Part shown: positions 18,001 through 34,540 of the stretch, one piece after another
Numbering within the stretch: position 1 is the first letter of the stretch
Layout: every line of letters starts with the position of its first letter
Assembly: GCA_003132585.1 (NCBI GenBank)
Contig: PKYG01000116.1
Span: 492 to 64,491, forward strand
DNA from: Actinomycetota bacterium
GTDB taxonomy: Bacteria > Actinomycetota > Thermoleophilia > UBA2241
DNA: 64,000 nt
Direction of reading: 5' to 3'
Position numbers and translations under genes: made by a program
Notes under the pieces: model-generated
What the model saw: only the letters and a program-made list of their open reading frames with translations
The model's database searches: none
Told to the model about the DNA's origin: nothing

Positions 18001-18549
18001 CGGCGAGACGATCTGGCTTTGGCGCAAAAGGGCGCGCTTGAGGAACTCGCTGAGGCGCTCGCCGTGGGCCGCCGCGCTCTTGCGCGGCGTTGAAGCGAGC
18101 ACCCAGAACCCCACCTCGGTCTCGGCGAGCGAGAAGCGCTCGAGCGCCGTGCGCTCGCCCTCGGCGTCGTAGCCGACGAGCACGAACTCTCGATAGGTGG
18201 TGACCAGCACCTGGCGGTAGTGCTCTAAGTACTTGCGCACTTGCTCGCTCTCGGCCACCGCGGCGGCCGAGTCGCTTGCCGGCTTGACCTCGATCGCTCC
18301 CCGCGCCGGGAGCTGTCCAGGTAGTGGCGCGCCGCTTTGCTTTTCGAACTGGTTGGCGACATAGAGCCCGCCGTCGGGAATGCCCGCTCCCTGATTGGCC
18401 GGGTTGATCACGCAGCGCACGTGCGGCTTGAGCTTGTGGCCGACCTCGTTGAGGAGGCTCTGCAGGGCGCCATAGCCCGACGTCTCCGGCACCGCTCCGG
18501 CGGTGCGGTTGGCGCTCAGCTCGGCGAAGTAGGTTTCGAGGGCGTCCAC
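15085..18549 (-). CDS. Large N6-adenine DNA methyltransferase, probable single-chain type IIG/ISP-like restriction-modification enzyme
   Basis: 1154 aa with a GTG start preceded by AGGAAGG. Motif I VLDPCCGTGAYLVEV precedes motif IV ILGNPPYNGFAG (gamma order). WYTPPEIVQYMV is present. The N-terminus has IPDGGLY...(27 aa)...AIEVKP, a PD-ExK-like pattern. The C-terminus has YTIGGYQVMKKWLSYRE, which I associate with type ISP-like specificity/C-terminal domains. Confidence 0.85.
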   Translation of the reverse strand: MDALETYFAELSANRTAGAVPETSGYGALQSLLNEVGHKLKPHVRCVINPANQGAGIPDGGLYVANQFEKQSGAPLPGQLPARGAIEVKPASDSAAAVAESEQVRKYLEHYRQVLVTTYREFVLVGYDAEGERTALERFSLAETEVGFWVLASTPRKSAAAHGERLSEFLKRALLRQSQIVSPQELAWFLASYAREARARAEERDLPNWNNTRVGLEEALGMSFSGEKGEHFFRSTLVQTLFYGLFAAWVFWAEHHELTDVRARFDWRSAAQYLHIPILQKLFYDFSQPGPLGALRIDEVLDWAAEALNRVDRASFFATFELNHAVQYFYEPFLEAFDPELRKELGVWYTPPEIVQYMVARVDQVLRSELGVADGLADPSVVVLDPCCGTGAYLVEVLGKIAETLREKGDDALIAHDLKQAAMSRIYGFEILPAPFVVSHLQIGMLLHRLGAPFTDGTDERASVYLTNALTGWDPPTAPKQHLLFTEMEEERDKAQAVKQHAPILVILGNPPYNGFAGVSTEEEGDLLTPYKAGLRDWGITKNYLDDLYVRFLRIAERRIVDHASKGVVCFISNFSYLGHPSYVTVRERLLTGFDKLWFDCLNGDSRETGKLTPTGEPDPSVFSTQKNREGIRVGTAIGLMVRHRSESSIAKPQVLFREFWGATKRQRLLDSLSSQREGDAYQMLEPIREQRYSFRPATAHPDFGSWPRLPDIVRAPASLGLNENRGQALLATDGATLEDRFRHYFDESVSFDALAALHPGLATDAAFFDAKAVRARLLKESSFDAEAIKRLWFKPFDMRWGYVERKAGLWNRVRPDLLDALHNGNSFLMARCKAPKTPDGAVFLYGSRLSDQHALQTDVYFFPEWFASEAPRSGDQTALDLETHGGERVANLSLPSLEYLGQLGLEVSESGQEAASPLLTHALAIGYSASYVKDNSGALRQDWPRIPLPATADALLASADLGRRVAALLDVESLVDGVSSGQIRFELRPIGSIAKADGGQIDPGAGDLAVTAGWGHAGQGGVTMPGRGRVVERAYTDEELAAFREGLAGLGLAQEQLTACLGGTCVDVFLNERAYWRCVPKRVWTYTIGGYQVMKKWLSYRERPLLGRDLTVDEARYVTEMARRIAAILLLEPALDANYEHVKADTYAWPGST

Positions 18550-20421: not shown

Positions 20422-20934
20422 TTAGGCCGCCCCTCCCAATTCGAGGATGCGCTTGCGGACTGCTTGAGCCAACTCGCCAAGACCATAGGCACCCCTCAAC
20501 TGGTTCTCGTAGACATACCGTGCCTGCTCGAAGACGAGGTCCATCTCACGGAGCACATCGTGGATCGCGAATGAGACCTTTGGAACCTGCGCCTTCATAG
20601 CTTGCGCGAGCGGATTGGCCGCAATCAGCCTCTCGAACGTCTGGGCGATCTCAGCCTGGCTATCCGGCGACAGGTCGGCGAAGAGAATGCGAAGACTGTG
20701 GGTTCGCAGACAATCTCCTCGTTCAAGGACCGCGAGACACTTCATGTACAGCTCGACGGCAAGGGCGTCACACACGACGCCCGGCCACAGGTAAGGGGTC
20801 GTGACGTAGCGCTGCGGCCCAGAGAGGACGCGATTGTTTGCCTGGTGCAGAAGAGCGGCGGATTCGTCGAAACCGGTGGCAGCAGCGAAGACAGACTTCG
20901 CGTCAGGCGTTTCCCTCGCAAGTCCCTGTCCCAT
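20422..20934 (-). CDS. Hypothetical all-helical protein, weakly HEPN-like
   Basis: 170-aa ORF with AAGGCGGA upstream. The segment AVELYMKCLAVLERGDCLRTHSLRILFADLSPDSQ resembles the helix-H-x-L-x-x-LF pattern of some HEPN families. The function call is weak. Confidence 0.6.
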   Translation of the reverse strand: MGQGLARETPDAKSVFAAATGFDESAALLHQANNRVLSGPQRYVTTPYLWPGVVCDALAVELYMKCLAVLERGDCLRTHSLRILFADLSPDSQAEIAQTFERLIAANPLAQAMKAQVPKVSFAIHDVLREMDLVFEQARYVYENQLRGAYGLGELAQAVRKRILELGGAA

Positions 20935-20969
20935 CGTCCGCCTTGGCGATTCGTGGTTGGCCTAGTCAC

Positions 20970-22387
20970 TATGAGATGGCCGGTCCGATCCGCGTATAGC
21001 GTGGATCATCCGCGGGAATCGGCCCGCGGTGCCGACACACGGAAAGGACCGGCCATGTACGAGTTTACGCACATCGGACTGGACGTGCACAAGGACACGA
21101 TCGCCGTGGCCGTGCTGCGATCGGGCACGACGACATGCGACGAACGCGTGATCCCCAACACCCCCGAGGCGGTGCGCAAGCTGCTTTCCGGCCACCCCGA
21201 TCCGTCGCTGCTCAGGACCTGCTACGAAGCCGGGCCGACCGGCTATGACACCCAGCGGCTGATCGCCTCGCTGGGGATCGCCTGTGACGTGATCGCGCCC
21301 TCGCTGATCCCCAGGCGCGCCGGCGTGCGCGTCAAGACCGACCGCTCCGACGCGCGCAACCTGGCACATCTTCACCGAGCGGGCGAGCTGACCTGCGTTC
21401 GCGTCCCGACGCCGGCCGAGGAAGCGGTGCGCGACCTCGTCCGCACGCGCGAGGAGCTGAAATCGGACCGCCGGATCGCCCGGCAGAGGATCCGCAGCTT
21501 CCTCTTGCGCTACGGCCGCCGCTACCCGGCACCCGGCGCCAGATGGAGCTGGAGGTTCGAGGTGTGGATGCGCGCCCTGCGCTTCGACGAACCGGCGTCG
21601 CAGGCGGCCTTCGAGCACCTGCTCGGCGCCTACTTCGTGCGCGACTCGCAGCTTTGCGCCGTCGACAGGCAGATCGCCGAGCTCGCCACACTCGACCCGC
21701 TCGCGGGTGGCGTGGCGCGCCTGCGCGCCTTTCGCGGGATCGACACGCTCACGGCGGTGACGCTGCTCACCGAGACGGGCGACTTCCGCCGCTTTGGCTC
21801 GGCGGGCTTCTACATGGCGTTCACCGGGCTCACACCGTCCGAGCACTCGAGCGGAGCGACGATCCGGCACGGTTCGATCACCAAGACCGGCAACCGGCAT
21901 GTGCGCCGGGTCTTGGTCGAGGCCGCCTGGGCCTACCGCTACGCGCCGGCGGTGCGTGGCGCCCACGCCAAGCGCCTCGAGGGCCAGCCGCCCGAGGTGG
22001 CGGCGTACTCCTGGGCGGCGCAGTGTCGTCTGCATGCCACCTACCGCAAGCTCGCCGCCAGGAAGGGCCCCAACAAGGCGGTCGTCGCCGTAGCGCGGGA
22101 GCTTGCCGGCTTCGTCTGGGGTGCGATGACTCAAGACATCGGGGCGTAGAGACACGCCATGCAGGCGGGCGGGCGCCACACACCGGAGAGATCCTCGTCG
22201 ACGTTATGCGACGTTAGAGCAAGCGCGCACCTAGTGGGAGGCAGGCTCCGGTCCGATCGAGATGTGCGGTTTTGAAATCCGCGGATATCAGCATGGTCGA
22301 GCGCCGATCCCATGTGCCCGCCCGCTTGCACCGACCTGTCCTGCGCGACCGCCCTAAAGGACGCGGGGGTTGACCGGCCATCTCATA
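20970..22387 (+). mobile_element. IS110-family insertion sequence (IS1111-like subgroup), apparently intact
   Basis: Perfect 16-bp inverted repeats: TATGAGATGGCCGGTC at 20970-20985 and its reverse complement at 22372-22387. They bracket a DEDD-type transposase gene. The 5' non-coding end is short (85 bp) and the 3' end is long (about 238 bp). Confidence 0.85.
21055..22149 (+). CDS. IS110-family (DEDD) transposase/recombinase
   Basis: MYEFTHIGLDVHKDTIAVAV...CYEAGPTGY...RVKTDRSDARNLA...GIDTLTAVTLLTETGDFRRF...GSITKTGNRHVRRVLVEAAW are canonical IS110 N- and C-terminal domain motifs. The 20602 start in the ORF track is a spurious extension. Confidence 0.95.
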   Translation: MYEFTHIGLDVHKDTIAVAVLRSGTTTCDERVIPNTPEAVRKLLSGHPDPSLLRTCYEAGPTGYDTQRLIASLGIACDVIAPSLIPRRAGVRVKTDRSDARNLAHLHRAGELTCVRVPTPAEEAVRDLVRTREELKSDRRIARQRIRSFLLRYGRRYPAPGARWSWRFEVWMRALRFDEPASQAAFEHLLGAYFVRDSQLCAVDRQIAELATLDPLAGGVARLRAFRGIDTLTAVTLLTETGDFRRFGSAGFYMAFTGLTPSEHSSGATIRHGSITKTGNRHVRRVLVEAAWAYRYAPAVRGAHAKRLEGQPPEVAAYSWAAQCRLHATYRKLAARKGPNKAVVAVARELAGFVWGAMTQDIGA

Positions 22388-22659: not shown

Positions 22660-23098
22660 GACCCCCCCTGGTCGACTTCTGCTGTGCCTAACAATGAGTA
22701 TGCAAACTGTGTAAGACGTCGAGCACACCCTACGCTTCTCCACGTAAGAGGTCTCCGGTCCTCGTGGACGCGTGGGATATGCAGTCTGTGTACGCCAGGT
22801 CAGAGCCCGTCCGTCGGGCTTCCTACGCCGTGGCGCCCCCTGTTGAGCACGCGCGTGATGAGGTCAAGAGCCCGCCCAGCCACCCCCTGCGGCCGAAGTG
22901 CTGGAGGTCACCCGATCCACTGAGGCCCACGATCGTGCTGCTCAGCGCGGTGCCGCCGACGCGAAGCCGACCAGCCGCGCACCACAAAGGTGGCTCGCCG
23001 CCCTCTCCCCCGTGCTTTCGGTGCGCCTGGTCTCGTTGCTGGAGGTCTTCACCAGAGCGATGGTGTTCCCACAGTCACACGCACGAAGGGAGCGCCCC

Positions 23099-24346
23099 AT
23101 GCAGGGTCACATCCGCAAGCGCAGCAAGGGCTCGTGGGAGTACATCATCGACATCGGCCCCCACCCCGCCCAGCGCTGCTCGGCCTGTCATCGCCGCTTC
23201 TGGGTCGAGCGCCGCCCCAAGGGTGAGTGTCCGAAGTGTGGCGGCAGATTGACTGAGACCGAGGAGCGCCGCCGCCAGACCAAGGCCGGCTTTGCCACGC
23301 GCAAGGAAGCGCAGGTGGCGATGAACAAGACGCTGGTCGCCGTCGAGGAGCACACTTACGTCGCCCCCACCCACCTGAGCCTGCGCAACTACCTGACCAA
23401 CGAGTGGCTGCCGGCGATCGAGTCGACGATCCGCGCCTCGACCTTTCGCAGCTACAAACAGCACGTCGAGTGCCACATCTGCCCGCACATCGGCTCGGTG
23501 CAGATGCAGAAGCTCTCCGGGTCGGCGATCAACGCCCTCTACGCCAAGCTGGCTGTCTCCGGCAAGCGTGACGCTAAGACTGGCCTCTCGGCACTCTCCA
23601 TCCGCCACACGCACGCCACCCTGCACCGCGCCCTCAAGGATGCGGTGCGCTGGGAGCGGACCACCCGCAACCCCGCCGACGCCGCCGACCCGCCGCGGGT
23701 CGCTGGCGGTGGCCATGAGATGAAGACCTGGGATGCCAGGCAGCTGGCTGCCTTTCTGACCGCGACGCGCTCGGACCGTCTTGGCGGTCTCTGGCATCTG
23801 CTGGCGATGACCGGCATGCGCAGGGGCGAGGCGCTGGGGCTGCCCTGGGAGGACGTCGATCTGGAGGCAGGCAGGATCTCGGTGCGTCGCGCGCTGATCC
23901 CCAACGGCAAGGTCGTGGTCGTCTCCGAACCGAAGACGGCGCGCGGACGGCGCTCGATCGCGCTCGACCCCGAGACGATACTTGTGCTGCGCGAGCAGGC
24001 GGCGCGACAGCTTTCAGACCAGCAGCGCAAGGGCAACGAGTGGCGCGACACGGGGCTGGTGTTCACCAAGGAGGACGGCGAGGCCTGGCACCCGGAGGTC
24101 GCCAGTCGCTTCTTCCGCCAGGCGGTGAGACGCGTGGCGCTACCGACCATCCGGTTGCACGACCTGCGCCACACCCACGCGACGTTGGCGCTGCGTGCCG
24201 GCATTCACCCGAAGGTGGTCTCCGAGCGCCTCGGACACGCGACGATCTCGATCACGCTCGACACCTACTCGCATGCGATCCCGGCGATGCAGGAGGAAGC
24301 GGCGGCGCGGATCGCGGAACTGGTCTTCTCGTGCGACACCGCGTGA
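23099..24346 (+). CDS. Tyrosine recombinase / phage-type integrase
   Basis: The internal ATG at 23099 gives MQGHIRKRSKGSWEYIIDIG, an arm-binding-domain start typical of actinobacterial integrases. A Zn-ribbon insert CSACHRRF...CPKCGG is present. Catalytic residues appear in AMTGMRRGEALGL, HDLRHTHATLAL and LGHATISITLDTYSH. Confidence 0.95.
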   Translation: MQGHIRKRSKGSWEYIIDIGPHPAQRCSACHRRFWVERRPKGECPKCGGRLTETEERRRQTKAGFATRKEAQVAMNKTLVAVEEHTYVAPTHLSLRNYLTNEWLPAIESTIRASTFRSYKQHVECHICPHIGSVQMQKLSGSAINALYAKLAVSGKRDAKTGLSALSIRHTHATLHRALKDAVRWERTTRNPADAADPPRVAGGGHEMKTWDARQLAAFLTATRSDRLGGLWHLLAMTGMRRGEALGLPWEDVDLEAGRISVRRALIPNGKVVVVSEPKTARGRRSIALDPETILVLREQAARQLSDQQRKGNEWRDTGLVFTKEDGEAWHPEVASRFFRQAVRRVALPTIRLHDLRHTHATLALRAGIHPKVVSERLGHATISITLDTYSHAIPAMQEEAAARIAELVFSCDTA

Positions 24347-24451
24347 AGACCCGACGCTCTCTCGCTCATAGCCGATTCCCTGCAGCGGCCACGATGTTTC
24401 GTGTGGACTCGAATGGTAATCTTCTGCTGTCTATTCTGAGGGGGACAACAG

Positions 24452-26638
24452 TTGGAAGACCGGCGGCCGCTGGACAATCGCTACTCTGGGCCCCTTGAGT
24501 CAGTGGACGGCATCCTGCGCGAGTTTCGGCTCAGGTTGCAAAACACCTTCGCGGATAGCCTCGTGTATCTCGGCACCACCACGCCTCAAGACGAGTTCTC
24601 TCGGGGTGAAGCTGCAGACATCGACGTGATGCTGGTGTTCGAGGCGCTGTCAGATGCTCATCTGCACTACGTCGAGCGGATGATTCAAGGCCTTATGCAG
24701 AAATACCGAGTCTCCCTCGACACCCGCCTATATGAAGTCGCCCAGTTGGACGGTGCCGATTCCGGGAGAGGAATACCCCTGGTGAACCGGTTTCTTCTGC
24801 ATCGATTCCTCCGCGACCTCTATGGAAGGAACCCCTTCGCTGAGGCGAAGTTCGATGGCCAGCAACTGGCAGAGGCATGCAAGGCAAGAATCACCTCGCA
24901 GCAGGAGCGCATAGTCGAGGCCTTGTCGCTTGTCTCATGGGATGCAGCACAGATCCGCCAAGTGTGCCAAGCCGTGTTCGACGCAGTCCGAGCCTTCTTA
25001 ATCCTAGAGAATGAACCGCGGGTCGGGAAGCTCGACGCTGCCCAGTACTTTCAACAGGCCTACCCAGGATACGAAGAGCTTCTTCCCATCTACCGCTGCT
25101 ATCAGCGGCCGGAAGACGTGGCATCCTGGGCGGACCTACTCCTCGACGCGTACGCCCTGGTCAGGCATCTGAAGCTCAGGTCTTCCCGGCCGACTCGCAC
25201 CGATGCAGTCCTCTTGGTCAATACGCCATCGTCGTTGATGCCGCACCCAAGAGACGATTACCTGGAGCGAGACCCTAACATGCCGCTTGGCCTCGTCTGC
25301 ATCGCGTCGTACTGCAACGAAGAGAGTCATTCAGTGTCTATTCTCGACGCCTACGCAGAGAACCTTGGGGCCCTTTCCACAGTAGACAGAATCTTCCAGG
25401 ACCCGACGAGAGTGTCAAGAATCATCGGCTTCAACTGCTCGTCCCCGAACGTCCACATCGTGCACAGAATCGCTCACTATCTGAAGCGAGTGGACCCACA
25501 CTTGGTTGTGGTCTGCGGCGGTCCTCATGCGACTTTGGCTCCGGAACACACGCTTGCCCAAGGCGATGTCGAGTATGCCGTGGTGGGTGAGGGGGAGCAG
25601 ACCTTCTTGGAGCTCGTGGAGCGCATTTTCAGCAACCAGGACATCAAAGGCCTTTCGGGTGTTGCCTCGATGAGAAATGGGAGACTGATCTGCGGCCCAA
25701 CTCGTCAAAGGCTGAGCTTGGACCACATCCCTCTCCCCGATTTCCGTCTTCTCCCACTGGAAGGGCGCTACTTCAGAAAGCGGAGAAGAATCTACCTGCA
25801 TGCCACAAGAGGCTGCGACCGCAACTGTATCTTCTGCTCGGTGCCAAAGTGCTGGGAGGGCGGTGTGCGTGCAATTCCCATGGATTTGTTCGTCAAGCAG
25901 ATACAGCTGTGCCAGCAACACTACGCGGCTGACGAGTTCCAGATCGTGGATGACAACTTCTCGCACCAGAAAGGGACCATCATTCGCAGCTTCCTGTCGG
26001 CGCTGGACTCCGCGAATGCCTCTCTTCGCTGGAAATGCCAAGCGAGAGCTGATCAGCTCGACTCGGAACTCATCAGCTTGATGGCGTTGCATGGGTGCTT
26101 CGAGATCGACCTGGGCATTGAGTCGGGCTCGCAGCGACTGCAGAAGTACATTCGCAAGAACCTGGACTTGACGGCAACGGCTCAGGTTGTCCAGGACATC
26201 TGCGACAACGGGATGCTGTGCAAGGCCTTCTTCATGCTGGGCTTTCCTGAGGAGACCTACGCTGAAATCGCGGAGACGATCAACTACTCCGTGAATCTCA
26301 AGCACGCAGGCCTCAAGGACGTCGCCTTCTTCCCCGTCATGCCGTTCCCGGGGACCGAGATCGCCGAGATCACCAAGAAGACCGTTTTCCAGGGAGCCAT
26401 CGTGGACGAGGCCGACGTTCTCGACCCGTCGTTCGAGGGCCGGCACCTGAGGAAGTACTCGGCGAAGCCTGAGGTCTCATTGAATGAGGACTTCACTCCG
26501 GACGAACTCAGAATGCTCGTTCGCTTTGCCTACCACACGTTCAATGCTGGACAACCCGTGACTAGCCTGAAAGAGAATTTCGAATCGTATGTCGCGGTTG
26601 AGGAGGAGGGGGTCTATGGCAGTTCGGCTGTTTCCTGA
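24452..26638 (+). CDS. Fusion protein: nucleotidyltransferase-like N-terminal region + B12-binding domain + radical SAM core
   Basis: TTG start preceded by GAGGGGGA with a 6-nt spacer. The N-terminal region has GEAADIDVMLVFE, a pol-beta NTase-like DxD context. The B12-binding-type module reads AVLLVNTPSS...PLGLVCIASY...HLVVVCGGPHATLAPEHTL...AVVGEGEQTF. The radical-SAM cluster motif GCDRNCIFC (CX3CX2C) lies at nt 25814-25837. Confidence 0.85.
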   Translation: MEDRRPLDNRYSGPLESVDGILREFRLRLQNTFADSLVYLGTTTPQDEFSRGEAADIDVMLVFEALSDAHLHYVERMIQGLMQKYRVSLDTRLYEVAQLDGADSGRGIPLVNRFLLHRFLRDLYGRNPFAEAKFDGQQLAEACKARITSQQERIVEALSLVSWDAAQIRQVCQAVFDAVRAFLILENEPRVGKLDAAQYFQQAYPGYEELLPIYRCYQRPEDVASWADLLLDAYALVRHLKLRSSRPTRTDAVLLVNTPSSLMPHPRDDYLERDPNMPLGLVCIASYCNEESHSVSILDAYAENLGALSTVDRIFQDPTRVSRIIGFNCSSPNVHIVHRIAHYLKRVDPHLVVVCGGPHATLAPEHTLAQGDVEYAVVGEGEQTFLELVERIFSNQDIKGLSGVASMRNGRLICGPTRQRLSLDHIPLPDFRLLPLEGRYFRKRRRIYLHATRGCDRNCIFCSVPKCWEGGVRAIPMDLFVKQIQLCQQHYAADEFQIVDDNFSHQKGTIIRSFLSALDSANASLRWKCQARADQLDSELISLMALHGCFEIDLGIESGSQRLQKYIRKNLDLTATAQVVQDICDNGMLCKAFFMLGFPEETYAEIAETINYSVNLKHAGLKDVAFFPVMPFPGTEIAEITKKTVFQGAIVDEADVLDPSFEGRHLRKYSAKPEVSLNEDFTPDELRMLVRFAYHTFNAGQPVTSLKENFESYVAVEEEGVYGSSAVS

Positions 26639-27368
26639 ACCCAAGACATGGTGCACCCCCTTTGTCTTGAAGAACCGGTCATACCAGAGATACCTCTACG
26701 TGGATGGGAAATGGCACCTGATCAGACTGGATAGCCGGCGCAGGAGTCCCTCTTTTGACTCGAAGAATCTGGATTGGCACCAACGGATGCCTGACAGGGA
26801 GCACCTGACGAAGTGGCTGCGCCAACAGACAGGCATCAACGAGGACTTCCGAGACTACGTGCGCGAAATGCTCGTTGTTCCGACTTTCTCGATGTGCGCT
26901 GCGGAAGCGCTCACCAAGGTTTTCATGCGACAGATAGTCACAGCCCGTCAGGCGCGACGGATGTTCTCCGATTTCGTGGAAGGGTTCGGCTACAGGAAGG
27001 GAGATGTCGTTGGTTTCCCTCCGCCGGAACGTGTTCAGCGGCTAGGCTCAACTGACTTCCGTGACATCGGCCTCGGCTTCCGCGCCGAGAGGCTAGTAAA
27101 GAGTCTCGGCCGCCTTAAGGGCTTCCAAGTCTCCAACCTGACTGATTTGCTTGAAGCCGATGTGCCAGGAATAGGCCCGTGGAGTAGGGCGATCTTGGCC
27201 GTCGAGTCCGCTCGCGACTACTCACACTACCCCTTCGAAGACAAGAGCGGCACGGCCATCAGGTCACTCACCGGCGCAAATGTTGCAGCTGTTGCGCATG
27301 ATGACCTTCAGCTGGCTGCCGACGTGTATGTCTACGGAGCCTCATACGTAGAGTCAAGACGGAATTAG
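26616..27368 (+). CDS. HhH-GPD superfamily DNA glycosylase-like protein (AlkA-like)
   Basis: ATG 26616 lies 9 nt after AGGAGG and overlaps the upstream gene by 23 nt. The HhH hairpin is LLEADVPGIGPWSRAILAV (compare AlkA FPGIGRWTANYFAL). It is followed by HYPFEDKSG, where AlkA has the catalytic Asp in LPDDYL. Confidence 0.7.
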   Translation: MAVRLFPEPKTWCTPFVLKNRSYQRYLYVDGKWHLIRLDSRRRSPSFDSKNLDWHQRMPDREHLTKWLRQQTGINEDFRDYVREMLVVPTFSMCAAEALTKVFMRQIVTARQARRMFSDFVEGFGYRKGDVVGFPPPERVQRLGSTDFRDIGLGFRAERLVKSLGRLKGFQVSNLTDLLEADVPGIGPWSRAILAVESARDYSHYPFEDKSGTAIRSLTGANVAAVAHDDLQLAADVYVYGASYVESRRN

Positions 27369-27369
27369 C

Positions 27370-27762
27370 GTGCGCTGTATCTACCTCGCTCATGCTGTGA
27401 CCAATGCGGCATCAGGCTACGAGGACATGCGGGTGGCTATCAGGACCGCAGTTCCCGATGCAAAGTGCATAGAGCCTGAAGGTCGACTTCTTCCAGAGAT
27501 CATCGCCGAGACGGCCTTCGACGGAATCAAGGCCTGCGATGTCCTGGTTGCCGACATCAGTGAGTACAGCATAGGCGTGGGCGTCGAAATCGGATATGCC
27601 TTCGGCCTCGGGAAACAGATTGTCTTGATTGCGAAAGAGACCGCCAAAGATGAGATATCGCCATTCCTTCGTGGAATCGCCCCCGACATTCTCTTCTATA
27701 GCAGTGTTGGCGACCTGTCGCGGCAGCTGGCGAGAGCTCTGAGGCGGGACAACTTCCCTTGA
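27370..27762 (+). CDS. Nucleoside 2-deoxyribosyltransferase / Rcl(DNPH1)-like protein
   Basis: GTG start 1 nt after the upstream stop. The N-terminal IYLAHAV strand and DVLVADISEYSIGVGVEIGYAFGLGKQIVLIAKE match the NDT-family core, with the conserved Glu in the E-x-G-Y-A context. Confidence 0.7.
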   Translation: MRCIYLAHAVTNAASGYEDMRVAIRTAVPDAKCIEPEGRLLPEIIAETAFDGIKACDVLVADISEYSIGVGVEIGYAFGLGKQIVLIAKETAKDEISPFLRGIAPDILFYSSVGDLSRQLARALRRDNFP

Positions 27763-27880
27763 CGAGAAAGTGCCCTCTTCTCGACCAAGGGAAGGACAGA
27801 AGCGTCATCGACAGTCGACATGCAGAGCGAAGTGGCCACTCCTCTCCCACAAACCAGATCGGCACGCTTGGGCGATGAAG

Positions 27881-28999
27881 CTAGAGCTGGCCCTCGTGGC
27901 CGGGATCCTGTTGTCTCTGCCGCCTGTATTGGCGCCAGACCTCCACTGGGCTGAACTTGGCCGCCGCTTCTCGCATACGGCTCAGTGCCTCGTGGCTGTA
28001 CCTCGGGAATCGTGACTTCCCGTGCTGGAAAGTGTGACAGCACTTCTCGTCCGATTTCAGGCCGAGCTTCCACACAAACGCAGTCGCCTGAGGTGCCGTA
28101 AGACTAGCCAGTCGGGCGAGGTCTGTTAGAGCAAACGGGTAGCGCTGCTCGTTATCGACTTCGCGGATGATTGCGGCGCTTTCAGCTTCATCCTCTGTCT
28201 CCGCGAACTTCACTGGCGGCGCGTCCTTCGCCTTGGCAAGGCGCACGTTGTAGGTCTGGCCGGTGCCGCTTGCGTCCAACGTCAACGACGCGAGGTTCGG
28301 CATTACCTCGCGCCAGGGGCGACCTTGCTTCAGTCGATTCGTCGCCCGGTCGACTTCAAGCGGGGTTGCGGTGCGCTCTTCCCCCGCCGCTGCGAGATCA
28401 ATGGCAAGCAGCGGGCGGAGTCGCGCCTTCGCCTCTGCGGTCTTGCGCCGCCCAGGCTCCAACAGGGCCTTGACTTGGGACACCTCCGTATCGATGAGCA
28501 ACTCAAGCGATGTCGGAGGATCGGTCGAAACCGGCAGCACACGACTCGGCAGGAAGTCGGCAAGGCTCACGTCGAACTCCTGTTTCAACACCTTGTCGAA
28601 CACCGTCACCGCCGTTTGGGTTTGCAGATACAGCGTCTGCTCGGAGAGCATCACCACTGAGTGTTGCGCAGCGTCGCGAACGTTCGACACGGCCGTCAAC
28701 GAGAGCGTTTCGGACTCCGTAAGAACCTTCTCGCCCTGATTCCCCAGCATCCGCAAAGCCGTGGCAACACTGATGCTTTTCGACTCGCGACGACGCTGTA
28801 TCGACTTGCCACGTTGCAGAAGGACGGCTTTCATCAGCATTTCGTGCGCATGAAGAGCGAAATGTAGGACTGCTTCCCGCCTTCCTTCCTCATACGGCCG
28901 GTTGAAGTGCTCGATCGCAAGGCGAGCAGAGCTGATAGCTCGCTCCAAGTACAGCCTCACGTTGCGTTTGACCCTCACAGCAGCCGCACCCCCCAACAT
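27881..28999 (-). CDS. Hypothetical protein with N-terminal HEPN-type Rx4H motif (DUF3644-like by recall) and C-terminal HTH-like region
   Basis: 372-aa ORF. LAIEHFNRPYEEGRREAVLHFALHAHEMLMKAVLL...VSNVRDAAQHS contains an R-x4-H motif. The tail reads ...LTDLARLASLTAPQATAFVWKLGL.... Confidence 0.65.
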   Translation of the reverse strand: MLGGAAAVRVKRNVRLYLERAISSARLAIEHFNRPYEEGRREAVLHFALHAHEMLMKAVLLQRGKSIQRRRESKSISVATALRMLGNQGEKVLTESETLSLTAVSNVRDAAQHSVVMLSEQTLYLQTQTAVTVFDKVLKQEFDVSLADFLPSRVLPVSTDPPTSLELLIDTEVSQVKALLEPGRRKTAEAKARLRPLLAIDLAAAGEERTATPLEVDRATNRLKQGRPWREVMPNLASLTLDASGTGQTYNVRLAKAKDAPPVKFAETEDEAESAAIIREVDNEQRYPFALTDLARLASLTAPQATAFVWKLGLKSDEKCCHTFQHGKSRFPRYSHEALSRMREAAAKFSPVEVWRQYRRQRQQDPGHEGQL

Positions 29000-29089
29000 C
29001 TACTTGCGTCCGCAAGTCCTCCGTTCAGCCGGCCAACGACAACATGTGCGGCTCGAACGAGCGACCAGGACCCTGACATGCGAAATCGA

Positions 29090-29212
29090 CTACGCCGGCC
29101 ACGGGAGGTTCTCGGTTGCGCCGAAGATGTGCCCGTCGTCAACCCAACAATGGGTGTAGCCCCCAGGACCGAAGATGTGGCCTCCGTCGATCCAGTAGCC
29201 TGTGTGAGACAC
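29090..29212 (-). CDS. Unlisted small ORF (40 aa) with tandem W(I/V)D(G/D)GHIFG motif
   Basis: Hand translation of the minus strand: GTG at 29212, preceded by GGGAG with a 5-nt spacer. Product is VSHTGYWIDGGHIFGPGGYTHCWVDDGHIFGATENLPWPA, with stop TAG at 29090-29092. It is co-oriented with the HEPN-motif gene and 90 bp upstream of it. It is below the 60-aa cutoff of the ORF track. Confidence 0.45.
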   Translation of the reverse strand: MSHTGYWIDGGHIFGPGGYTHCWVDDGHIFGATENLPWPA

Positions 29213-29398
29213 GACCACTCCCAGATTAGTGGTGCCCTCGTGACCCGTGTTTCGCTAGCGGCGCCGCCGCCCGTGCTTGCCCTCTAAGTCATGCATACTA
29301 GCGCACGGCTCAACGAGAATGTCGGCGCAAATGGTGACTTTCGGCGACCGGTGAGAGTCATCGTAATGAGGAAGATGCCGAATAGCAGGGGTTTCTTC

Positions 29399-29442
29399 TG
29401 GAGGCGGCGACCGGAGTCGAACCGGTGATGGAGGTTTTGCAG
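29399..29442 (-). pseudogene. tRNA-Cys(GCA) 3' half fragment (anticodon loop to CCA); probable att-site scar
   Basis: The reverse complement is CTGCAAA-ACCTC-CATC-ACCGG-TTCGACT-CCGGT-CGCCGCC-T-CCA. That parses as anticodon loop with GCA, anticodon stem 3' strand, 4-nt variable loop, complete T arm, acceptor 3' strand, discriminator U and CCA. Compare the E. coli tRNA-Cys 3' end ...GGUUCGACUCCGGAACGCGCCUCCA. The 5 nt 5' of the loop (CACCA) cannot pair with ACCTC, and no GGCGGCG acceptor 5' strand is present. Confidence 0.75.
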
Positions 29443-29861
29443 TGGTGACTGGCGCCCAGAGCCCCTGACCGGTCTCCTGAACTGGCTGCACGTGGCCATT
29501 CTCGCCCGACCGATCGAGGCCCAAGTGCGCGAGTCTTGACCCCCCGAACAATCGATGTCGGCGAAATGGCGGCGGCCCAACTGGCGCTACGTGGCGCAAT
29601 TGGAAGGCCCCATCAAGCCTTGGCGCTCAGTGCCGGGGCGAATCGCGACCAGCGCGAGAGATCTCGTCTTGCCTGCCTATGCAGGGCTTTTGCCGCGCGG
29701 CCTACGGTGGCTGGCGGCGCACACAACCACCCCGCGCTGCACTGGCGAGGCCCTCAGCCACGCCAGTCCCAGGCACGCGGGGTGTCGGCTGTGAGCACTC
29801 AGACGTGCGCAGCGGCTCGCCAGCGGCACCGTTATCGATCGGCTATCGTACCGGCTCGCGC

Positions 29862-31049
29862 TTAGCTGGCCCGGGCGCGGCGCTCGCGCCGGCGCTTCTG
29901 CTTCTTGGCGGCGTCCTGACAGAGCAACGAGCAGAAGCGCTGTTTGCGGCGCCGGGAGCGATACAGCTGCCCGCAACGCTTACAGGAGGCGAAGCGCACG
30001 CCGCCGCTGATGTCGCGGTAAGCCATGACCGCGAGGCTGCCCAGAAGCGAGGGGATCGCAAGCTCGGCCTTGAAGCTGCCTTGGACGTAGCGCAGCACCG
30101 GCGAGACGCACTCGAGCAGCTCGTTGAGGGCCTCGATCTGCGCACTTCGCTTCTTTGCGTCTGACGACTGCACACCGCGCAGGATGTCCGCCAGACAGAC
30201 CGCGTAGCCGGCGATCGCCACGACGTCCTCGCTGTAGGCGCGCCAGAAGGCGGCGCTGTTGGGAAGCGGCAAGCCGGATCCATGCCGGTCGCGCAAGTAG
30301 CTGCGCCGCAGCTCGTTGAGGTCAGCGAGCTCAATGGTCCGCGGCGCCCGCCGGCCTGGCAGCCCGTGGCGGCGCAGCACCACCTCGGGCCCCAGGCGCG
30401 TTTCGTTTCCGGGCCACACCGATTCTGCCCGAACCTTGGCGAGGCTGCGCACCGCCAAGCCCTCGGGCGGCGGTCCGGTCAGTGCCGAACGATGGACGAG
30501 GTCATGCTCGCGCCAACCTGCGCCGACGCGCTCGTAGCGTTTGACGTTGGTCAGCAGCTGGGCGTCTTCGCCGCTCTCAGAAAACCCCGCAAGCAGCGCC
30601 CTCGGTCCGGCCTCCAGATCAACGAGCAGCGTCTCGTGCTGGAAGATCCCTAGCAGACCGAACTGCTTGCACCAGTCGAGGATGGCCTCGCCAAGCTCCG
30701 GCGGCAGCTCAACCTCCTCGGCGGCCAGGGCGGCCTGGGCGCGGCCGAGCCACGCGACGATCTCTGAGCTCGTCGGGTGGGCCGGCACCTCGCCGGCCGC
30801 CTGCGTCCAGAAGCGATCCCAACTTGTCTTGACCGTCTCAGAGTGCCAGTCGCGCACCTGCTCGCCGAGACGGCCGAGCTCGACGTAGAGAGGCTGCTTT
30901 CCAGCCGCAGCGTCCCCGTCATGCCAGGGGTCGTAGGTCGTAAGGCGGGCGCCCCGGACCGGTCGCACGCGACGTCCGACGAGCTCGTAGCGCTCGAAGC
31001 GCCACCAGCTGCCCCGCCAGACCTGTCTGCCTGTGTTGTCTTCGGCCAT
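29862..31049 (-). CDS. Hypothetical protein with C-terminal zinc-ribbon and basic tail
   Basis: 395-aa ORF ending in CKRCGQLYRSRRRKQRFCSLLCQDAAKKQKRRRERRARAS. It is divergent from the ParB-methylase gene. I recognise no family for the first 340 aa. Confidence 0.65.
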   Translation of the reverse strand: MAEDNTGRQVWRGSWWRFERYELVGRRVRPVRGARLTTYDPWHDGDAAAGKQPLYVELGRLGEQVRDWHSETVKTSWDRFWTQAAGEVPAHPTSSEIVAWLGRAQAALAAEEVELPPELGEAILDWCKQFGLLGIFQHETLLVDLEAGPRALLAGFSESGEDAQLLTNVKRYERVGAGWREHDLVHRSALTGPPPEGLAVRSLAKVRAESVWPGNETRLGPEVVLRRHGLPGRRAPRTIELADLNELRRSYLRDRHGSGLPLPNSAAFWRAYSEDVVAIAGYAVCLADILRGVQSSDAKKRSAQIEALNELLECVSPVLRYVQGSFKAELAIPSLLGSLAVMAYRDISGGVRFASCKRCGQLYRSRRRKQRFCSLLCQDAAKKQKRRRERRARAS

Positions 31050-31056
31050 CGTCCCT

Positions 31057-31084
31057 GGTTAGTCCCTGCCACGTAGGGACAACC
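31057..31084. promoter_or_regulatory. Imperfect inverted repeat (GGTTaGTCCCT-7 nt-AGGGACAACC) in the divergent promoter/5' leader region
   Basis: GTCCCT at 31062-31067 pairs with AGGGAC at 31075-31080, and the flanking GGTT/AACC extend the stem. A third GTCCCT at 31051-31056 is the complement of the AGGGAC Shine-Dalgarno-like element of the 29862-31049 gene. Confidence 0.35.
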
Positions 31085-31209
31085 GGTGGAATCCTATTAC
31101 TAGAAGGCATCCCGCGACAAGCGATTGGAGGTACGCCCCAAGCAGTTTGAAGCCCTGCACCCGTTCTCGGTGCTGCCCTGTGCCCTTTCTTTCTTACGAG
31201 GTGATCCCG

Positions 31210-32502
31210 ATGTCAAAGCACACACTCCCCCCGTCCGGCCCGGCGAGCGCCGGCGAGCTTTCTGTCGTCTCCTGGCCGATCGAGCGGCCGATCCCCTACG
31301 CGCGTAACGCGCGCGTCATACCAAAGAGCGCGATCGACAAGGTGGCGACCTCGATTCGCCAGTTCGGCATGCGCCAGCCGATCGTGGTCGATGAGAACGA
31401 CGTCGTCCTGGTCGGCCACGTCCGCCTGCTGGCACTGCGTCAGCTGGGCCTGACCCACGTCCCCGTCCATGTCGCCGTCGGACTCTCGCCGGAGAAAGCG
31501 CGCGCCTATCGGCTGATGGACAACCGTTCCCACGACGAGACCACTTGGGACTACGGGCTGCTGGCACCCGAGCTTGCCGATCTCGGCGGCCTGGGCTTGG
31601 ATTTGGACCTCACCGGCTTTGGCGAGGCCGAGATCGCCACCCTGCTTAGCGGCCCCAGCGCAGGTCTGACCGACCCCGACGAGCTGCCCGAACCACCGGC
31701 GGAGCCGATCACCCAGCCCGGCGATTTGTGGATTATGGATGACCACCGTCTAGCCTGCGGCGACTCCATCGACCCCGTGCAGGTCGAGCGCGTGATGGAT
31801 GGCCAGCGCGCCAGCCTGATGGCAACAGATCCGCCTTATCTCTGTAATTACGATGGTGGTAATAGGCCCCAGACCTGGGGCAAGGACGGCCAGCCCATCA
31901 GCGGCGAGGACAAGACCAAGCATTGGGACACCTACGTCGACCACGACACCTCGGTGAAGTTCTACGAGGACTTCCTCAAGGTCGCCCTCGCCGAGGCCCT
32001 GACCGAGACTCCGGTGGTCTACCAGTGGTTCGCCATGATGAAGGCCGACATCGTCTTCGAGGCCTGGCGCACGGTCGGACTCTTGCCCCATCAGGTGATC
32101 GTGTGGCACAAGAGCCGTCACGTCTTAAGCCGCTGCGACTTCATGTGGAATTACGAGGTCGCGGCATATGGATGGGTCCAAGGCAAGCGTCCCGAACCAG
32201 AGCGTCGTCCACCGGCCAACGCCACCGCCGTCTGGGAGGTCCCCTCAGCGATAGAAGACGGCGCCAGCGGCATCCATCCCACGCAAAAAGCAGTCGAGCT
32301 CATCCGCCGTCCGATCGAGTACCACACGCACGCAGGCGAGCTGATCTACGAGCCCTTCGCCGGTTCCGGTACCGCGTTCATCGCCGCCGCGCAGATGGGG
32401 CGGCGCTGCTTCGGCCTCGAGATCAGCCCGAGCTTCGTCGATCTCGCCGTGATCCGTTGGCAGAACTTCACCGGCAGAACCGCGCAGCGGGTCGGCGGCT
32501 GA
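31210..32502 (+). CDS. ParB-like nuclease domain fused to N4/N6 DNA methyltransferase (beta class)
   Basis: ATG 31210 is preceded by GAGGTGA. The ParB-like N-terminal region reads RQPIVVDENDVVLVGHVRLLALRQLG. The methylase has motif IV LMATDPPY before motif I IYEPFAGSGTAFIAAAQMGRRCFGLEI. Confidence 0.9.
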   Translation: MSKHTLPPSGPASAGELSVVSWPIERPIPYARNARVIPKSAIDKVATSIRQFGMRQPIVVDENDVVLVGHVRLLALRQLGLTHVPVHVAVGLSPEKARAYRLMDNRSHDETTWDYGLLAPELADLGGLGLDLDLTGFGEAEIATLLSGPSAGLTDPDELPEPPAEPITQPGDLWIMDDHRLACGDSIDPVQVERVMDGQRASLMATDPPYLCNYDGGNRPQTWGKDGQPISGEDKTKHWDTYVDHDTSVKFYEDFLKVALAEALTETPVVYQWFAMMKADIVFEAWRTVGLLPHQVIVWHKSRHVLSRCDFMWNYEVAAYGWVQGKRPEPERRPPANATAVWEVPSAIEDGASGIHPTQKAVELIRRPIEYHTHAGELIYEPFAGSGTAFIAAAQMGRRCFGLEISPSFVDLAVIRWQNFTGRTAQRVGG

Positions 32503-32521
32503 AAATGAAAGGAGGCCGTTG

Positions 32522-32926
32522 ATGGCCACAGACCAAGTCCACGTCTCGAAGGCCGAGCGTCTGCGCCGCGTGATGGAGATCTATCCGCTCGTGGTCGACG
32601 GCCTCGCCTTTGCCCAGATCAAGGAGGTCACATCGAAGAAGTTCAGCTGGTCGGTGCCGGACCGCACCCTGCAGCGCTACATCGCCCAGGCCAACGCCCT
32701 GGTGGCCGAACAGGCGAGCTATGTGCGCGCCGAGAAGTTCGCCCAGGCAGCGGCCTTTTTGGAACGTCTACGCACCCGCGCCGCGATCGCTGGCGACATC
32801 ACCCGCGCCCTCGCCGTGCAGTGCGAGCTCGATCGCCTCTACGGCCTGCTCGCCCCCGACAAGCACGAGCTCGCTGGTGGCCTCGCGCTGAAGGGCTACG
32901 TCAACCTTGATGAGGAGGAGCTATGA
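32522..32926 (+). CDS. Putative terminase small subunit / DNA-binding packaging protein
   Basis: 134-aa helical protein with AAAGGAGG upstream. Its stop overlaps the TerL start (ATGA). The assignment is positional only. Confidence 0.45.
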   Translation: MATDQVHVSKAERLRRVMEIYPLVVDGLAFAQIKEVTSKKFSWSVPDRTLQRYIAQANALVAEQASYVRAEKFAQAAAFLERLRTRAAIAGDITRALAVQCELDRLYGLLAPDKHELAGGLALKGYVNLDEEEL

Positions 32927-34440
32927 ACGAGTCGTCGTCAGCGGATGGATTCCGCGTGGAGAAGCTCTACCACCCCTACGGCGGCGCCAAAGAGCTGATG
33001 CGCAGCCACGAGCCCGAGGTCCTGCTCTGCGGACCGTCGGGCACCGGCAAGTCGCGGGCCGCCCTGGAGAAGCTCAACGCGTTGTGCCTCAAATACCCGG
33101 GGCTGCGCGTCCTCGTGATTCGCAAGACCCGCGAGAGCCTGACTCAGTCCGGGCTGGTCACCCTCGACCACGACGTGATTGTCCCCGAGCACGCGGTGTG
33201 GCTGGCCAACCGCGGCGAGTGGCGATACAGAAACGGCTCGCGGATCGTCGTCGCTGGCATGGATAAGGTCGGCAAAATCATGAGCTCCGAGTACGACATC
33301 ATCTACGTGCAGGAGGCGACCGAACTGCTCGAAGACGACTGGGAGCATCTGACCACGCGCCTGCGCGGCACGACATTGCCCTACCATCAAATCATCGCCG
33401 ACTGTAACCCGTCGGGCTCCTCGCACTGGCTGTTGCGCCGTGCCCAGGCCGGCAAGCTGAAGATCATTGACTCACGCCACGAGGACAACCCGCGCCTGGT
33501 CGACCCCCGCACCGGCGAGTACACCCCCGAGGGTCGCGACTACCTCGCCAAGCTCGATGCACTCACCGGCGTGCGCTACCAACGCCTGCGCCTTGGCCGC
33601 TGGGTGAGTGCCGAAGGCATCGTCTTCAACGAGTACGATGCCAACGTCCATCTGATCGCGGCACAGCCAGCCTTCGGCGGCGAGTTGCCACCGGCCCACT
33701 GGCCGCGGTTGTGGTCGATCGACTTCGGCTACACGCACCCGTTCGTCTGGCAGGCGTGGGCGAAGGATCCCGAGACCGAGGCGCTGTATCGCTTCGCCGA
33801 GCTCTACCACACCAACCTGCTGGTCGAGAAGGTCGCCGACATCATCACCGCATGGATGAACCGCACCGGTGAGGAGTTCCCCGAGGCGATCATCTGCGAT
33901 CACGATGCCGAGGGTCGCGCCACCCTGCGCGACAAGCTCGGCGTGCCGACAATCGGCGCGAAGAAGTCAGTCGCACTCGGGATCCAGGCGGTCAAGCAGC
34001 GGCTCTTAGTCGACGGCGAGGGCAAGGCCCGCCTCTACCTGATTCGCGACGCCGGCATCATGCCCGATGCGACACTCTTCGAGGCCAAGCAGCCGACCTC
34101 GACGGAGGAAGAGATCGAGCTCTACATCTGGGAGGACGGCGTCAAGGACTCGACCCCGGTCAAGGCCCACGACCACGGCATGGACGCGATGCGCTATGTG
34201 ACGATGCACGTCGACAAGGGCGGCTGGTCGCTCGAACAGATCGCCGCCTGGGGACGCGGGGAGTCAAGCCTCAAGGCGTCCGGCTCATCTTCGGCCCCCG
34301 CGAAGCCCGAGCCGCAACCCAAGCCGCCCGAGCCGGAGAAACCGGCGGAAACGCCGGAGGAAAAGCAGCGCCGCCGGGAAGAGGAGGTCGAGGAGATGAA
34401 CCGCCAGGCGCTGCTGCGCGCCCGCGGCTTCAAAGAATAG
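32923..34440 (+). CDS. Phage terminase large subunit (PBSX-like family)
   Basis: Walker A LLCGPSGTGKS, Walker B-like YDIIYVQEATEL, nuclease-domain acidic motifs SIDFGYTHP and HDHGMDAMRYV. An unusual Pro/Glu/Lys-rich C-terminal tail of about 60 aa follows. Confidence 0.9.
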   Translation: MNESSSADGFRVEKLYHPYGGAKELMRSHEPEVLLCGPSGTGKSRAALEKLNALCLKYPGLRVLVIRKTRESLTQSGLVTLDHDVIVPEHAVWLANRGEWRYRNGSRIVVAGMDKVGKIMSSEYDIIYVQEATELLEDDWEHLTTRLRGTTLPYHQIIADCNPSGSSHWLLRRAQAGKLKIIDSRHEDNPRLVDPRTGEYTPEGRDYLAKLDALTGVRYQRLRLGRWVSAEGIVFNEYDANVHLIAAQPAFGGELPPAHWPRLWSIDFGYTHPFVWQAWAKDPETEALYRFAELYHTNLLVEKVADIITAWMNRTGEEFPEAIICDHDAEGRATLRDKLGVPTIGAKKSVALGIQAVKQRLLVDGEGKARLYLIRDAGIMPDATLFEAKQPTSTEEEIELYIWEDGVKDSTPVKAHDHGMDAMRYVTMHVDKGGWSLEQIAAWGRGESSLKASGSSSAPAKPEPQPKPPEPEKPAETPEEKQRRREEEVEEMNRQALLRARGFKE

Positions 34441-34463
34441 GGACCAGGGTCTTCGACCACCGT

Positions 34464-34496: not shown

Positions 34497-34540
34497 CGAT
34501 TCGTATCTCGCTTCGGCGATTGGGGCATGATCTGCTTCCT

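Follow-up and report, generated by a model that had tools for sequence, protein, structure and literature searches.

A recurrent pairing of B12-type radical-SAM and DNA-glycosylase-like genes in a mobile three-gene cassette from an Actinomycetota bacterium

The cassette described here consists of three genes: gene A encodes a fusion of a predicted nucleotidyltransferase (NTase) head with a B12-binding domain and a radical S-adenosylmethionine (radical-SAM) core, gene B a protein resembling HhH-GPD DNA glycosylases, and gene C a protein resembling Rcl/DNPH1. It lies in a 64,000-nucleotide (nt) stretch of DNA from an Actinomycetota bacterium (Thermoleophilia, UBA2241; GenBank assembly GCA_003132585.1, contig PKYG01000116.1, positions 492 to 64,491), from here on called the window. 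The family of gene A was surveyed by clustering of open reading frames (ORFs) and hidden Markov models (HMMs), which yielded 35 non-redundant loci with informative flanks. A gene with a glycosylase fold stood beside the radical-SAM gene in all 35 of these loci, represented by B in 18 and by a family-4-like uracil-DNA glycosylase (UDG) in 17. In 88 control loci with generic B12-radical-SAM genes there was no member of this UDG family, no C and a single B-like gene, and the locus of the latter (L115) is itself a related cassette. The invariant core of the module is a radical-SAM enzyme plus any DNA-glycosylase fold, with two unrelated glycosylase folds replacing each other. The third gene encodes an exchangeable enzyme of the nucleotide pool (Rcl-like, or a dTMP kinase plus a NUDIX protein). 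A-B-C is a self-contained module with horizontal mobility. We tentatively propose, as the likeliest reading, that it may be a conflict system built on a non-canonical nucleobase, serving either in anti-phage or anti-plasmid defence or as an addiction-type toxin and antidote.

The three genes and their junctions

The two Pfam domains of A scored above their cut-offs of 32.1 bits (PF02310) and 29.5 bits (PF04055), and the cysteines C455, C459 and C462 of the CDRNCIFC motif were invariant among 37 family sequences (Table 1). In class B, a B12-binding Rossmann domain stands ahead of a radical-SAM core that bears CxxxCxxC, and by its domains A is predicted to be a cobalamin-type (class B) radical-SAM enzyme, with putative cobalamin use and methyl transfer. 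The closest solved structures to the radical-SAM core in the PDB were AprD4, TokK and CysS. The assignment of a specific chemistry to A was tried and abandoned, as the matches in NCBIfam lay far under their cut-offs and OxsB was not among these structural neighbours.

For the N-terminal 268 amino acids (aa) of A, only marginal matches and none above cut-off were obtained with Pfam, and detection from sequence failed. An AlphaFold2 (AF2) model of this part, built on 21 sequences, reached a predicted local distance difference test score (pLDDT) of 87.9. In Foldseek, it matched AAD(9) (6xz0) at an E-value of 1e-6, followed by AadA, ANT(4'), HalB and MNT antitoxins; the matches to AAD(9), AadA, KNTase and ANT(4') span E-values of 1e-6 to 1e-4, and HalB is a defence NTase. 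Residues G41, D56 and D58 of the NTase signature are invariant and D90 is nearly so; R92 is invariant as well. Hence, the head has the features of the ANT and KNTase enzymes, namely hG[ST], DxD about 10-15 residues further on, a third acidic residue and a helical lobe. Its identity as an NTase follows from structure prediction, because sequence models could not resolve the head.

Gene B had no Pfam or NCBIfam match at E<=0.1, including PF00730 and the AlkA/Ogg equivalogs, and no match in PADLOC. A profile of 17 B sequences matched Archaeoglobus AlkA (1.5e-10), E. coli AlkA (4e-6) and Clostridium Ogg (1e-4) in the PDB. The AF2 model of B (pLDDT 87.6) was aligned by Foldseek to Ogg and AlkA over the full length, the N-terminal beta domain included; BFVD yielded no structural match. 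The helix-hairpin-helix (HhH) motif, the catalytic Asp about 20 residues on and the N-terminal beta domain are those of the AlkA/Ogg branch, and Asp209 aligns to the Asp of FPADD in the Archaeoglobus enzyme. B looks like a monofunctional glycosylase, because it has a Trp at the position where AlkA also has Trp and the bifunctional Ogg has Lys. An exhaustive HMMER scan of 1.84 billion proteins recovered only 32 full-length representative clusters of the B family at E<=1e-30, separated by a clear score gap from generic AlkA-like proteins. Two proteins, P0151 and P0158 (387-397 aa each), are fusions of B and C; the gene for P0151 (L146, 483-1676) overlaps the 3' end of an A gene.

Gene C matched PF05014 with 34.5 bits (cut-off 28.8). 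Its best match in the PDB was rat Rcl, at an E-value of 4e-7 for Rcl/DNPH1, and DNPH1 structures were among the next-best. It contains the motif GVGVE73IG, and Y5, D57, S67 and S97 are conserved. Glu73, Ser67 and Ser97, conserved in 16 homologues, align to a Glu and two Ser of Rcl, which we take to be the catalytic Glu and the two phosphate-binding Ser of that enzyme. C is predicted to be an Rcl/DNPH1-like N-glycosidase.

These results bear out the domain assignments of a sequence-only reading of this DNA. The NTase-like head and the B12/radical-SAM core that it had described agree with Pfam and with AF2 and Foldseek, its HhH-GPD fold with a retained Asp in B agrees with the AlkA profile matches, the AF2 model and the invariant D209, and its placement of C in the nucleoside 2-deoxyribosyltransferase (NDT)/Rcl fold is matched by the PF05014 and Rcl scores.

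The close packing of the genes, described there as a 23-nt overlap of A and B and a start of C 1 nt past the stop of B, was confirmed on the sequence as well. Gene A starts with TTG, preceded by the Shine-Dalgarno-like GAGGGGGA, and stops with TGA (26636-26638). The ATG of gene B at 26616 lies six nt past its ribosome-binding site GAGGAGGAGG, so that B overlaps A across the stop codon of the latter, and an alignment of 16 homologues showed this ATG to be a conserved Met start. The TAG of B (27366-27368) is separated by 1 nt from the GTG of C at 27370. Tight coupling is kept in homologous loci, with A/B overlaps of 11 nt and B/C overlaps of 1-4 nt. A, B and C form a single, translationally coupled operon. 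Its GC content of 57-58% compares with 65-70% in the immediate flanks, measured on the integrase gene and on the genes beyond 29 kb, which substantiates the lower GC content that had been estimated by eye.

Gene order and distribution across the family

The A family comprised about 57 full-length homologues with 42-82% identity and about 15 short ones, counted as cluster representatives among 5.8 billion proteins. Among 185,579 species genomes it was found at 6 loci, all in metagenome-assembled genomes, from Acidobacteriota, Lentisphaerota, Ignavibacteriota and Chloroflexota. In the JGI metagenomes, 34 close loci were obtained among 41 confirmed matches. The family is rare and patchy across phyla.

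Three types of gene order were distinguished among the 35 loci. In the 18 loci of type 1, B comes after full-length A, and in 15 of them C follows too. In type 2 (nine loci), a gene of the UDG superfamily replaces B next to full-length A, occasionally together with C (L044, L145), a dTMP kinase (L026), an HD-domain protein (L140) or a small membrane protein. In type 3 (eight loci), A is short and has no NTase head, and the UDG gene lies upstream in divergent orientation; here, the radical-SAM gene is preceded by a helix-turn-helix-plus-M78 protein matching RmrA (E 3e-49) and by the toxin MazF. The sequence-only reading had named the absence of co-occurrence elsewhere as the result that would speak against it; A, B and C were found together at 15 independent loci, in addition to the B-C fusions.

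The UDG partner is family-4-like, with a match to the Sulfolobus tokodaii UDG at 1.3e-11, a match to TIGR00758 under cut-off and 20-25 bits against TIGR03914, for which the cut-off is 190. It retains HHPS, and GEAPG of motif A is changed to GLSAK. The accessories are all nucleotide-pool enzymes: the Rcl-like C, the dTMP kinase of L026 and of gp37 in the phage SF3, the NUDIX protein gp38 of the same phage, and the HD-domain protein. The gene for the latter adjoins A in L140 and showed a weak match to PF01966, a match to HD_assoc_2 and, as its only match in NCBIfam, a marginal one to dGTP triphosphohydrolase.

Two further observations concern the same loci. In the clade with short A (e.g. L033, 7420-11470, and L142), a gene for an ATP-dependent DNA ligase often follows. 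A small predicted membrane protein is encoded beside A in six loci (L026, 2810-3313; L021; L024; L027/L028; L043); it had a weak match below cut-off to 8xMP (PF24838), and no literature on it was found.

A fourth type, first met at L115, has the order B-like HhH-GPD gene, B12-radical-SAM gene, dTMP kinase gene and NUDIX gene, and its radical-SAM enzyme is 27-28% identical to A. It is carried by the Streptomyces phage SF3 (gp35-gp38) and by the conjugative plasmid pSP01, in both cases beside integrase genes. Homologues of gp35 were found on 13 further Streptomycetaceae plasmids, on 12 of them over most of its length, and at least six of the 13 have an annotated radical-SAM gene at the match or beside it. 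In the SF3 genome paper, gp35 was independently annotated as HhH-GPD (PMC5336643). No function has been reported for the type 4 cassette. SF3 is temperate, and the cassette lies in its lysogeny region by the integrase gene, away from the replication genes. In IMG/VR (2.9 million viral contigs), no close member of the A family was present among the best 80 matches of a scan taken up to 600 stretches. A phage origin of the family was considered and rejected, as these 80 matches were generic B12-radical-SAM genes with at most 29% identity. PHROGs contained nothing for A or B.

The phage and plasmid relatives bear on an alternative that we consider unlikely and that the sequence-only reading had listed as its first hypothesis, namely a DNA hypermodification pathway which would mark or protect host DNA or that of the mobile element. 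Here, A would modify a base at the nucleotide level. The base would then enter DNA either by C freeing it and B swapping it in, in a DpdA-like manner, or by kinases feeding a modified deoxynucleoside monophosphate (dNMP), as for T4 or Z genomes. T4 rewires its nucleotide pool by gp56, gp42 and gp1, and Z-genome phages by DatZ, MazZ and PurZ. The accessories of the module (NUDIX, dTMP kinase, HD-domain protein and dNMP hydrolase) resemble such rewiring, the related cassette occurs on SF3 and on conjugative plasmids, and a B-C fusion would channel the freed base to B. Against this stand the absence of close family members from the best IMG/VR matches, the location of the SF3 cassette in the lysogeny region instead of with the replication genes, and the lack of a conserved cognate restriction component. 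Moreover, HhH-GPD and UDG enzymes are not known as base installers, B retains a hydrolytic AlkA-type active site, and the chromosomal copies lie in defence islands. With regard to Dpd itself, no TGT, QueC, QueD or QueE domains were found in the cassette or among its conserved neighbours.

The integrative element and the neighbouring genes

The cassette of the window is carried by a roughly 12-kb integrative element (~22900-34680) that extends from the integrase gene to the gene for the large terminase subunit. The homology of the element to contig L003 ends at ~34682. In related contigs (L001-L003), the start of the integrase gene was called at sites equivalent to 23036 or 23099 of the window. 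The element, which also contains a 134-aa ORF, looks like a satellite or prophage remnant.

Table 1. Features of the cassette, of the element carrying it and of related loci. Positions refer to the window unless a locus is named.
Feature	Position	Strand	Basis or remark
Type ISP restriction-modification enzyme	~15085-18549	-	N6_Mtase plus Type_ISP_C; just upstream of the element
IS110-family transposase	20602-22149	+	just upstream of the element
Tyrosine integrase	22898-24346	+	PF00589, PF14659; ends 105 nt before A
Shine-Dalgarno-like GAGGGGGA	24438-24445	+	6 nt before the TTG start of A; read from the sequence
Gene A	24452-26638	+	728 aa; NTase/B12-binding/radical-SAM fusion; ORF and Pfam
A, residues 1-268: predicted two-domain pol-beta-type NTase (NTase lobe and helical lobe)	24452-25255	+	AF2 and Foldseek
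A, residues 278-388: B12-binding (Rossmann-like) domain	25283-25615	+	PF02310, E 5e-19, 68.8 bits
A, residues 452-611: radical-SAM core	25805-26284	+	PF04055, E 2.9e-14, 54 bits
A, CDRNCIFC (C455, C459, C462)	25814-25837	+	CxxxCxxC of the radical-SAM core
Ribosome-binding site of B, GAGGAGGAGG	26600-26609	+	within the 3' end of A; read from the sequence
Gene B	26616-27368	+	250 aa; AlkA/Ogg-type HhH-GPD DNA glycosylase-like
B, HhH motif GIGPWS, residues 185-190	27168-27185	+	invariant
B, Asp209, catalytic position	27240-27242	+	invariant
Gene C	27370-27762	+	130 aa; Rcl/DNPH1-like, nucleoside 2-deoxyribosyltransferase fold
DUF3644/HEPN protein	27881-28999	-	PF12358; RDAAQH; PDC-S19, E 7.5e-118; convergent with the cassette
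395-aa protein, function unassigned	29862-31049	-	Cys-rich C-terminal tail; on the element
ParB_N plus N6/N4 methyltransferase	31147-32502		on the element
Terminase_3 large subunit	~33019-34536		on the element
Type 4 cassette gp35-gp38, Streptomyces phage SF3	L149, 5722-9095		beside integrase
Type 4 cassette, conjugative plasmid pSP01	L148, 5173-8620		beside integrases

The annotated neighbourhoods of the family consist mainly of restriction-modification (R-M) systems, other defence genes and mobile-element genes. The window and L001 share the Type ISP enzyme, IS110, the integrase and the HEPN gene; Type I R-M, GmrSD and HEPN genes were found at L005, and a Type I-like R subunit, HEPN, IS21 and IS110 at L006. 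Next to other copies lie a SIR2-plus-Piwi protein (SIR2-pAgo; L022), a Type I R-M system with AAA_13 and HicB (L142), an MmeI-like (IIG) enzyme with a TIR-STAND protein (L145), and IS21, IS481, a macrodomain protein and a large deaminase (L134 and L136). L138 combines DpnII, methyltransferases, GmrSD_N plus RelA_SpoT, DUF4238, NurA plus HerA, and DruA; L140 is an element with integrase, ParB and resolvase. By horizontal transfer, the module reaches defence islands, prophages and plasmids. The setting in a defence island or mobile element, the integrase gene just upstream (ending at 24346) and the convergent gene with a HEPN motif (a DUF3644 protein with RDAAQH), all read from the letters before, were recovered in this analysis.

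A scar of an attachment (att) site at a tRNA-Cys gene, which had also been suggested, was not found and is rejected: neither ARAGORN with default settings nor Rfam (E<=1) detected a tRNA or tRNA fragment near the cassette, and relaxed ARAGORN thresholds gave only low-score calls that resemble noise. There was also no att-type direct repeat between the integrase side and the right end of the element.

The DUF3644/HEPN gene was considered as a fourth component of the module and rejected, as it adjoins the cassette in only three of about 35 loci (the window, L005 and L006). It probably serves in defence on its own and does not belong to the conserved cassette. A link of the MNT-HEPN type between the MNT-like NTase head of A and this gene is conceivable.

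Two side observations were made on the sequence around the cassette. The GC content is 56-66% over 1-52 kb, compared with 70-75% for the sugar-metabolism genes at 53-63 kb. The intergenic segment 29121-29196 is present in a single copy in the window, with no tandem repeat, and L001-L003 have an extra copy of 48-96 bp; the difference reflects a polymorphism in length or else noise of the assembly.

Possible function and its alternatives

As a gene combination, the module lies outside every named system tested, and this is probably true of its mechanism as well. In PADLOC-DB v2.0.0, A matched only the generic B12-radical-SAM model PDC-M51A (1e-13), B and the UDG partners matched nothing and C had only marginal TIR matches (E ~0.01); the sole real match was that of the neighbouring gene to PDC-S19. 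No NCBIfam model reached its cut-off for the proteins of the module. The gene combination is not described in the databases and the full-text literature searched, the coverage of which leaves out most subscription journals. The earlier impression that no named system is matched was upheld, as PADLOC and NCBIfam gave no match and none was of the Dpd or Dnd type.

Glycosylases of the HhH and UDG folds that work as single genes have been proven to act against phages (PMC11078745; bioRxiv 10.1101/2025.10.29.685425). Brig1 and Brig2 (UDG fold) and the Dag families (HhH fold) share with the module the same two folds, the location on mobile elements and the strong divergence from repair enzymes. However, Brig and Dag proteins act solo on phage-specific modified bases, whereas in the module the glycosylase is always accompanied by a B12-type radical-SAM enzyme and usually by a pool enzyme; in no informative locus was B or the UDG partner a single gene.

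The likeness to these effectors underlies an alternative to which we give little probability, a Type IV-like, modification-dependent defence. B or the UDG partner would excise hypermodified bases of phages, and C would hydrolyse modified dNMP precursors of the phage, as DNPH1 and MilB do with hydroxymethyl-pyrimidine nucleotides. A would have an auxiliary role, trimming the modification, processing the abasic site or the excised base, or regulating the system. That the published single-gene defence glycosylases have exactly these two folds argues for it, as do the defence-island context and the best solved relatives of C, which are N-hydrolases of 5-hydroxymethyl-dUMP and hydroxymethyl-CMP; a B-C fusion would suit two co-effectors. 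Yet the known defence glycosylases act alone, and B never occurs without a radical-SAM gene and its family is scarce elsewhere. Furthermore, A, the most conserved and costliest component, gets no defined job in such a scheme, and the dTMP kinase accessory is left unexplained.

The strict dependence of B on A, unlike the situation of stand-alone glycosylases, suggests either that A makes the base on which B acts or that A balances the activity of B. The first option is favoured because the AlkA and UDG folds are sequence-independent and would be poor restriction enzymes for unmodified DNA. This leads back to the proposed conflict system. We infer its substrate, its chemistry, the direction of writer and eraser and its phenotype, and the overall claim derives from comparative genomics.

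Most B12-type radical-SAM enzymes alkylate an unactivated carbon. In the conflict system, A would act as the writer, making by radical chemistry an unusual base on a deoxynucleotide or on DNA, and its NTase head might bind or activate the nucleotide substrate or regulate the enzyme. B, or the UDG partner, would flip the base from DNA and cleave its N-glycosidic bond, leaving abasic sites. C would hydrolyse the matching 5'-mononucleotide to base and deoxyribose-5-phosphate and so keep the pool clear, a task that the NUDIX protein would have in type 4, and the dTMP kinase, where present, would drive the base towards incorporation. As long as the cell rests, B and C would keep the product of A in check. 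Upon infection, the base would build up in fast-replicating foreign DNA, which would be shredded via abasic sites, or the cell would abort.

Such a logic of writer and eraser is that of DarT-DarG and of DNPH1 with SMUG1. DarT-DarG pairs a toxin that modifies DNA bases with an enzyme that removes the modification, and it is anti-phage too. The module would resemble it in combining, on a mobile unit, a writer of a DNA-base lesion with an enzymatic eraser; it differs in its components, an ADP-ribosyltransferase and a macrodomain there versus a radical-SAM enzyme, a glycosylase and an N-glycosidase here, and in that the toxicity of A is putative. Human DNPH1 and SMUG1 combine pool sanitation and DNA excision of one modified pyrimidine, 5-hydroxymethyl-dU. 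The shared feature is an Rcl-fold dNMP N-hydrolase and a UDG-superfamily glycosylase that handle one modified base, but DNPH1 and SMUG1 are unlinked eukaryotic housekeeping genes without a dedicated writer. The writer and eraser logic also fits the toxin-antitoxin wiring of type 3. There, RmrA and MazF directly precede the radical-SAM gene, reminiscent of RosmerTA with its antitoxin RmrA and variable toxins; the pair is, however, absent from the window and confined to one clade of the family.

Several points weigh against a conflict system of this kind. The closest solved core to that of A belongs to AprD4, which works without cobalamin, A has no recognisable DNA-binding module, and neither its chemistry nor its substrate is deducible, every NCBIfam match being far under cut-off. 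The catalytic status of the UDG partner is uncertain, judging from its loss of the motif-A Glu. The dTMP kinase, which would activate a dNMP, opposes C and NUDIX, which would destroy it, so that the model must split the components into toxin and antidote sides. Gene fusion, coupling and displacement are equally compatible with the rival explanations. In addition, defence-island enrichment was judged on about 12 annotated neighbourhoods and without a genome-wide statistic, and at L144 the cassette is a clean insertion between truB and ribF, in housekeeping surroundings.

A mobile cassette for DNA repair or detoxification appears very unlikely. In that case, B would remove an exogenous lesion, C would clean the dNMP pool and A would reverse or process the lesion. 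AlkA/Ogg-, UDG- and Rcl/NUDIX-type enzymes do have classical repair and sanitation activities, and spore photoproduct lyase is a radical-SAM enzyme of direct DNA repair (PMC8307549). Haft's pair of a radical-SAM enzyme (TIGR03916) and the UDG-superfamily protein UdgX/DUF4130 (TIGR03914) is likewise an uncharacterised, conserved pairing of these two kinds of enzyme, annotated as DNA modification or repair; however, TIGR03916 proteins have their own HhH domain and no B12 domain, and A does not match the model. The rare, patchy and mobile distribution beside R-M, pAgo, TIR and toxin-antitoxin genes is not that of a repair cassette, nor is the wiring of type 3 to RosmerTA-like RmrA plus MazF, and neither TIGR03916 nor TIGR03914 was matched.

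Radical-SAM enzymes also convert nucleotides into antiviral analogues, as known for prokaryotic viperins (pVips) and for OxsB/OxsA of oxetanocin biosynthesis, the genes of which frequently have nucleotide kinases or HD phosphohydrolases as neighbours. Together with a partner of the HD-domain type, OxsB takes 2'-deoxyadenosine phosphates as its substrates. A does not resemble viperins and showed no particular closeness to OxsB, and those systems have neither a glycosylase partner nor an NTase fusion. The sequence-only reading had offered a minimal nucleoside natural-product cassette as its alternative, with the argument that NDT-family CMP hydrolases and radical-SAM enzymes share such pathways. 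In this form, blasticidin-, mildiomycin- or oxetanocin-like products or antiviral nucleosides would be made, and B would serve for self-resistance only. The HD-domain gene adjoining A in L140 would be in line with it. We hold this to be extremely improbable: only the radical-SAM gene, the glycosylase gene and, in most HhH-type loci, C are conserved, all flanks differ, and no further biosynthetic, export or tailoring genes are shared. The strictly conserved partner is a DNA glycosylase and not an NDT, and the cassette is found on its own in defence islands, prophages and plasmids. The sequence-only reading as a whole stood in its domains, co-occurrence, context and lack of a known match; its tRNA-Cys scar and its natural-product alternative were not sustained, and the data favour neither its base-exchange hypermodification hypothesis nor its second one, abortive damage to nucleotides or DNA, over the other.

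Returning to the conflict system, it is a rather doubtful further step that an unknown carbon-modified base acts as an immune weapon or addiction toxin, with a glycosylase and a dNMP N-glycosidase as its erasers, which would amount to a new class of radical-chemistry immunity, close to DarT-DarG in its logic but with unrelated enzymes and a tie to base-excision repair. SF3 and the Streptomyces plasmids with the related four-gene cassette offer cultured material for experiments. Should the module prove to serve in immunity or addiction, it would join the cobalamin-dependent chemistry of radical-SAM enzymes, the enzymes of base-excision repair and the sanitation of the nucleotide pool, fields that have been apart so far, and a new modified base or nucleotide would probably come to light. 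The module would also extend antiviral DNA glycosylases from single genes to a multi-enzyme system and provide one of the numerous orphan families of B12-radical-SAM enzymes with a concrete role that can be tested.

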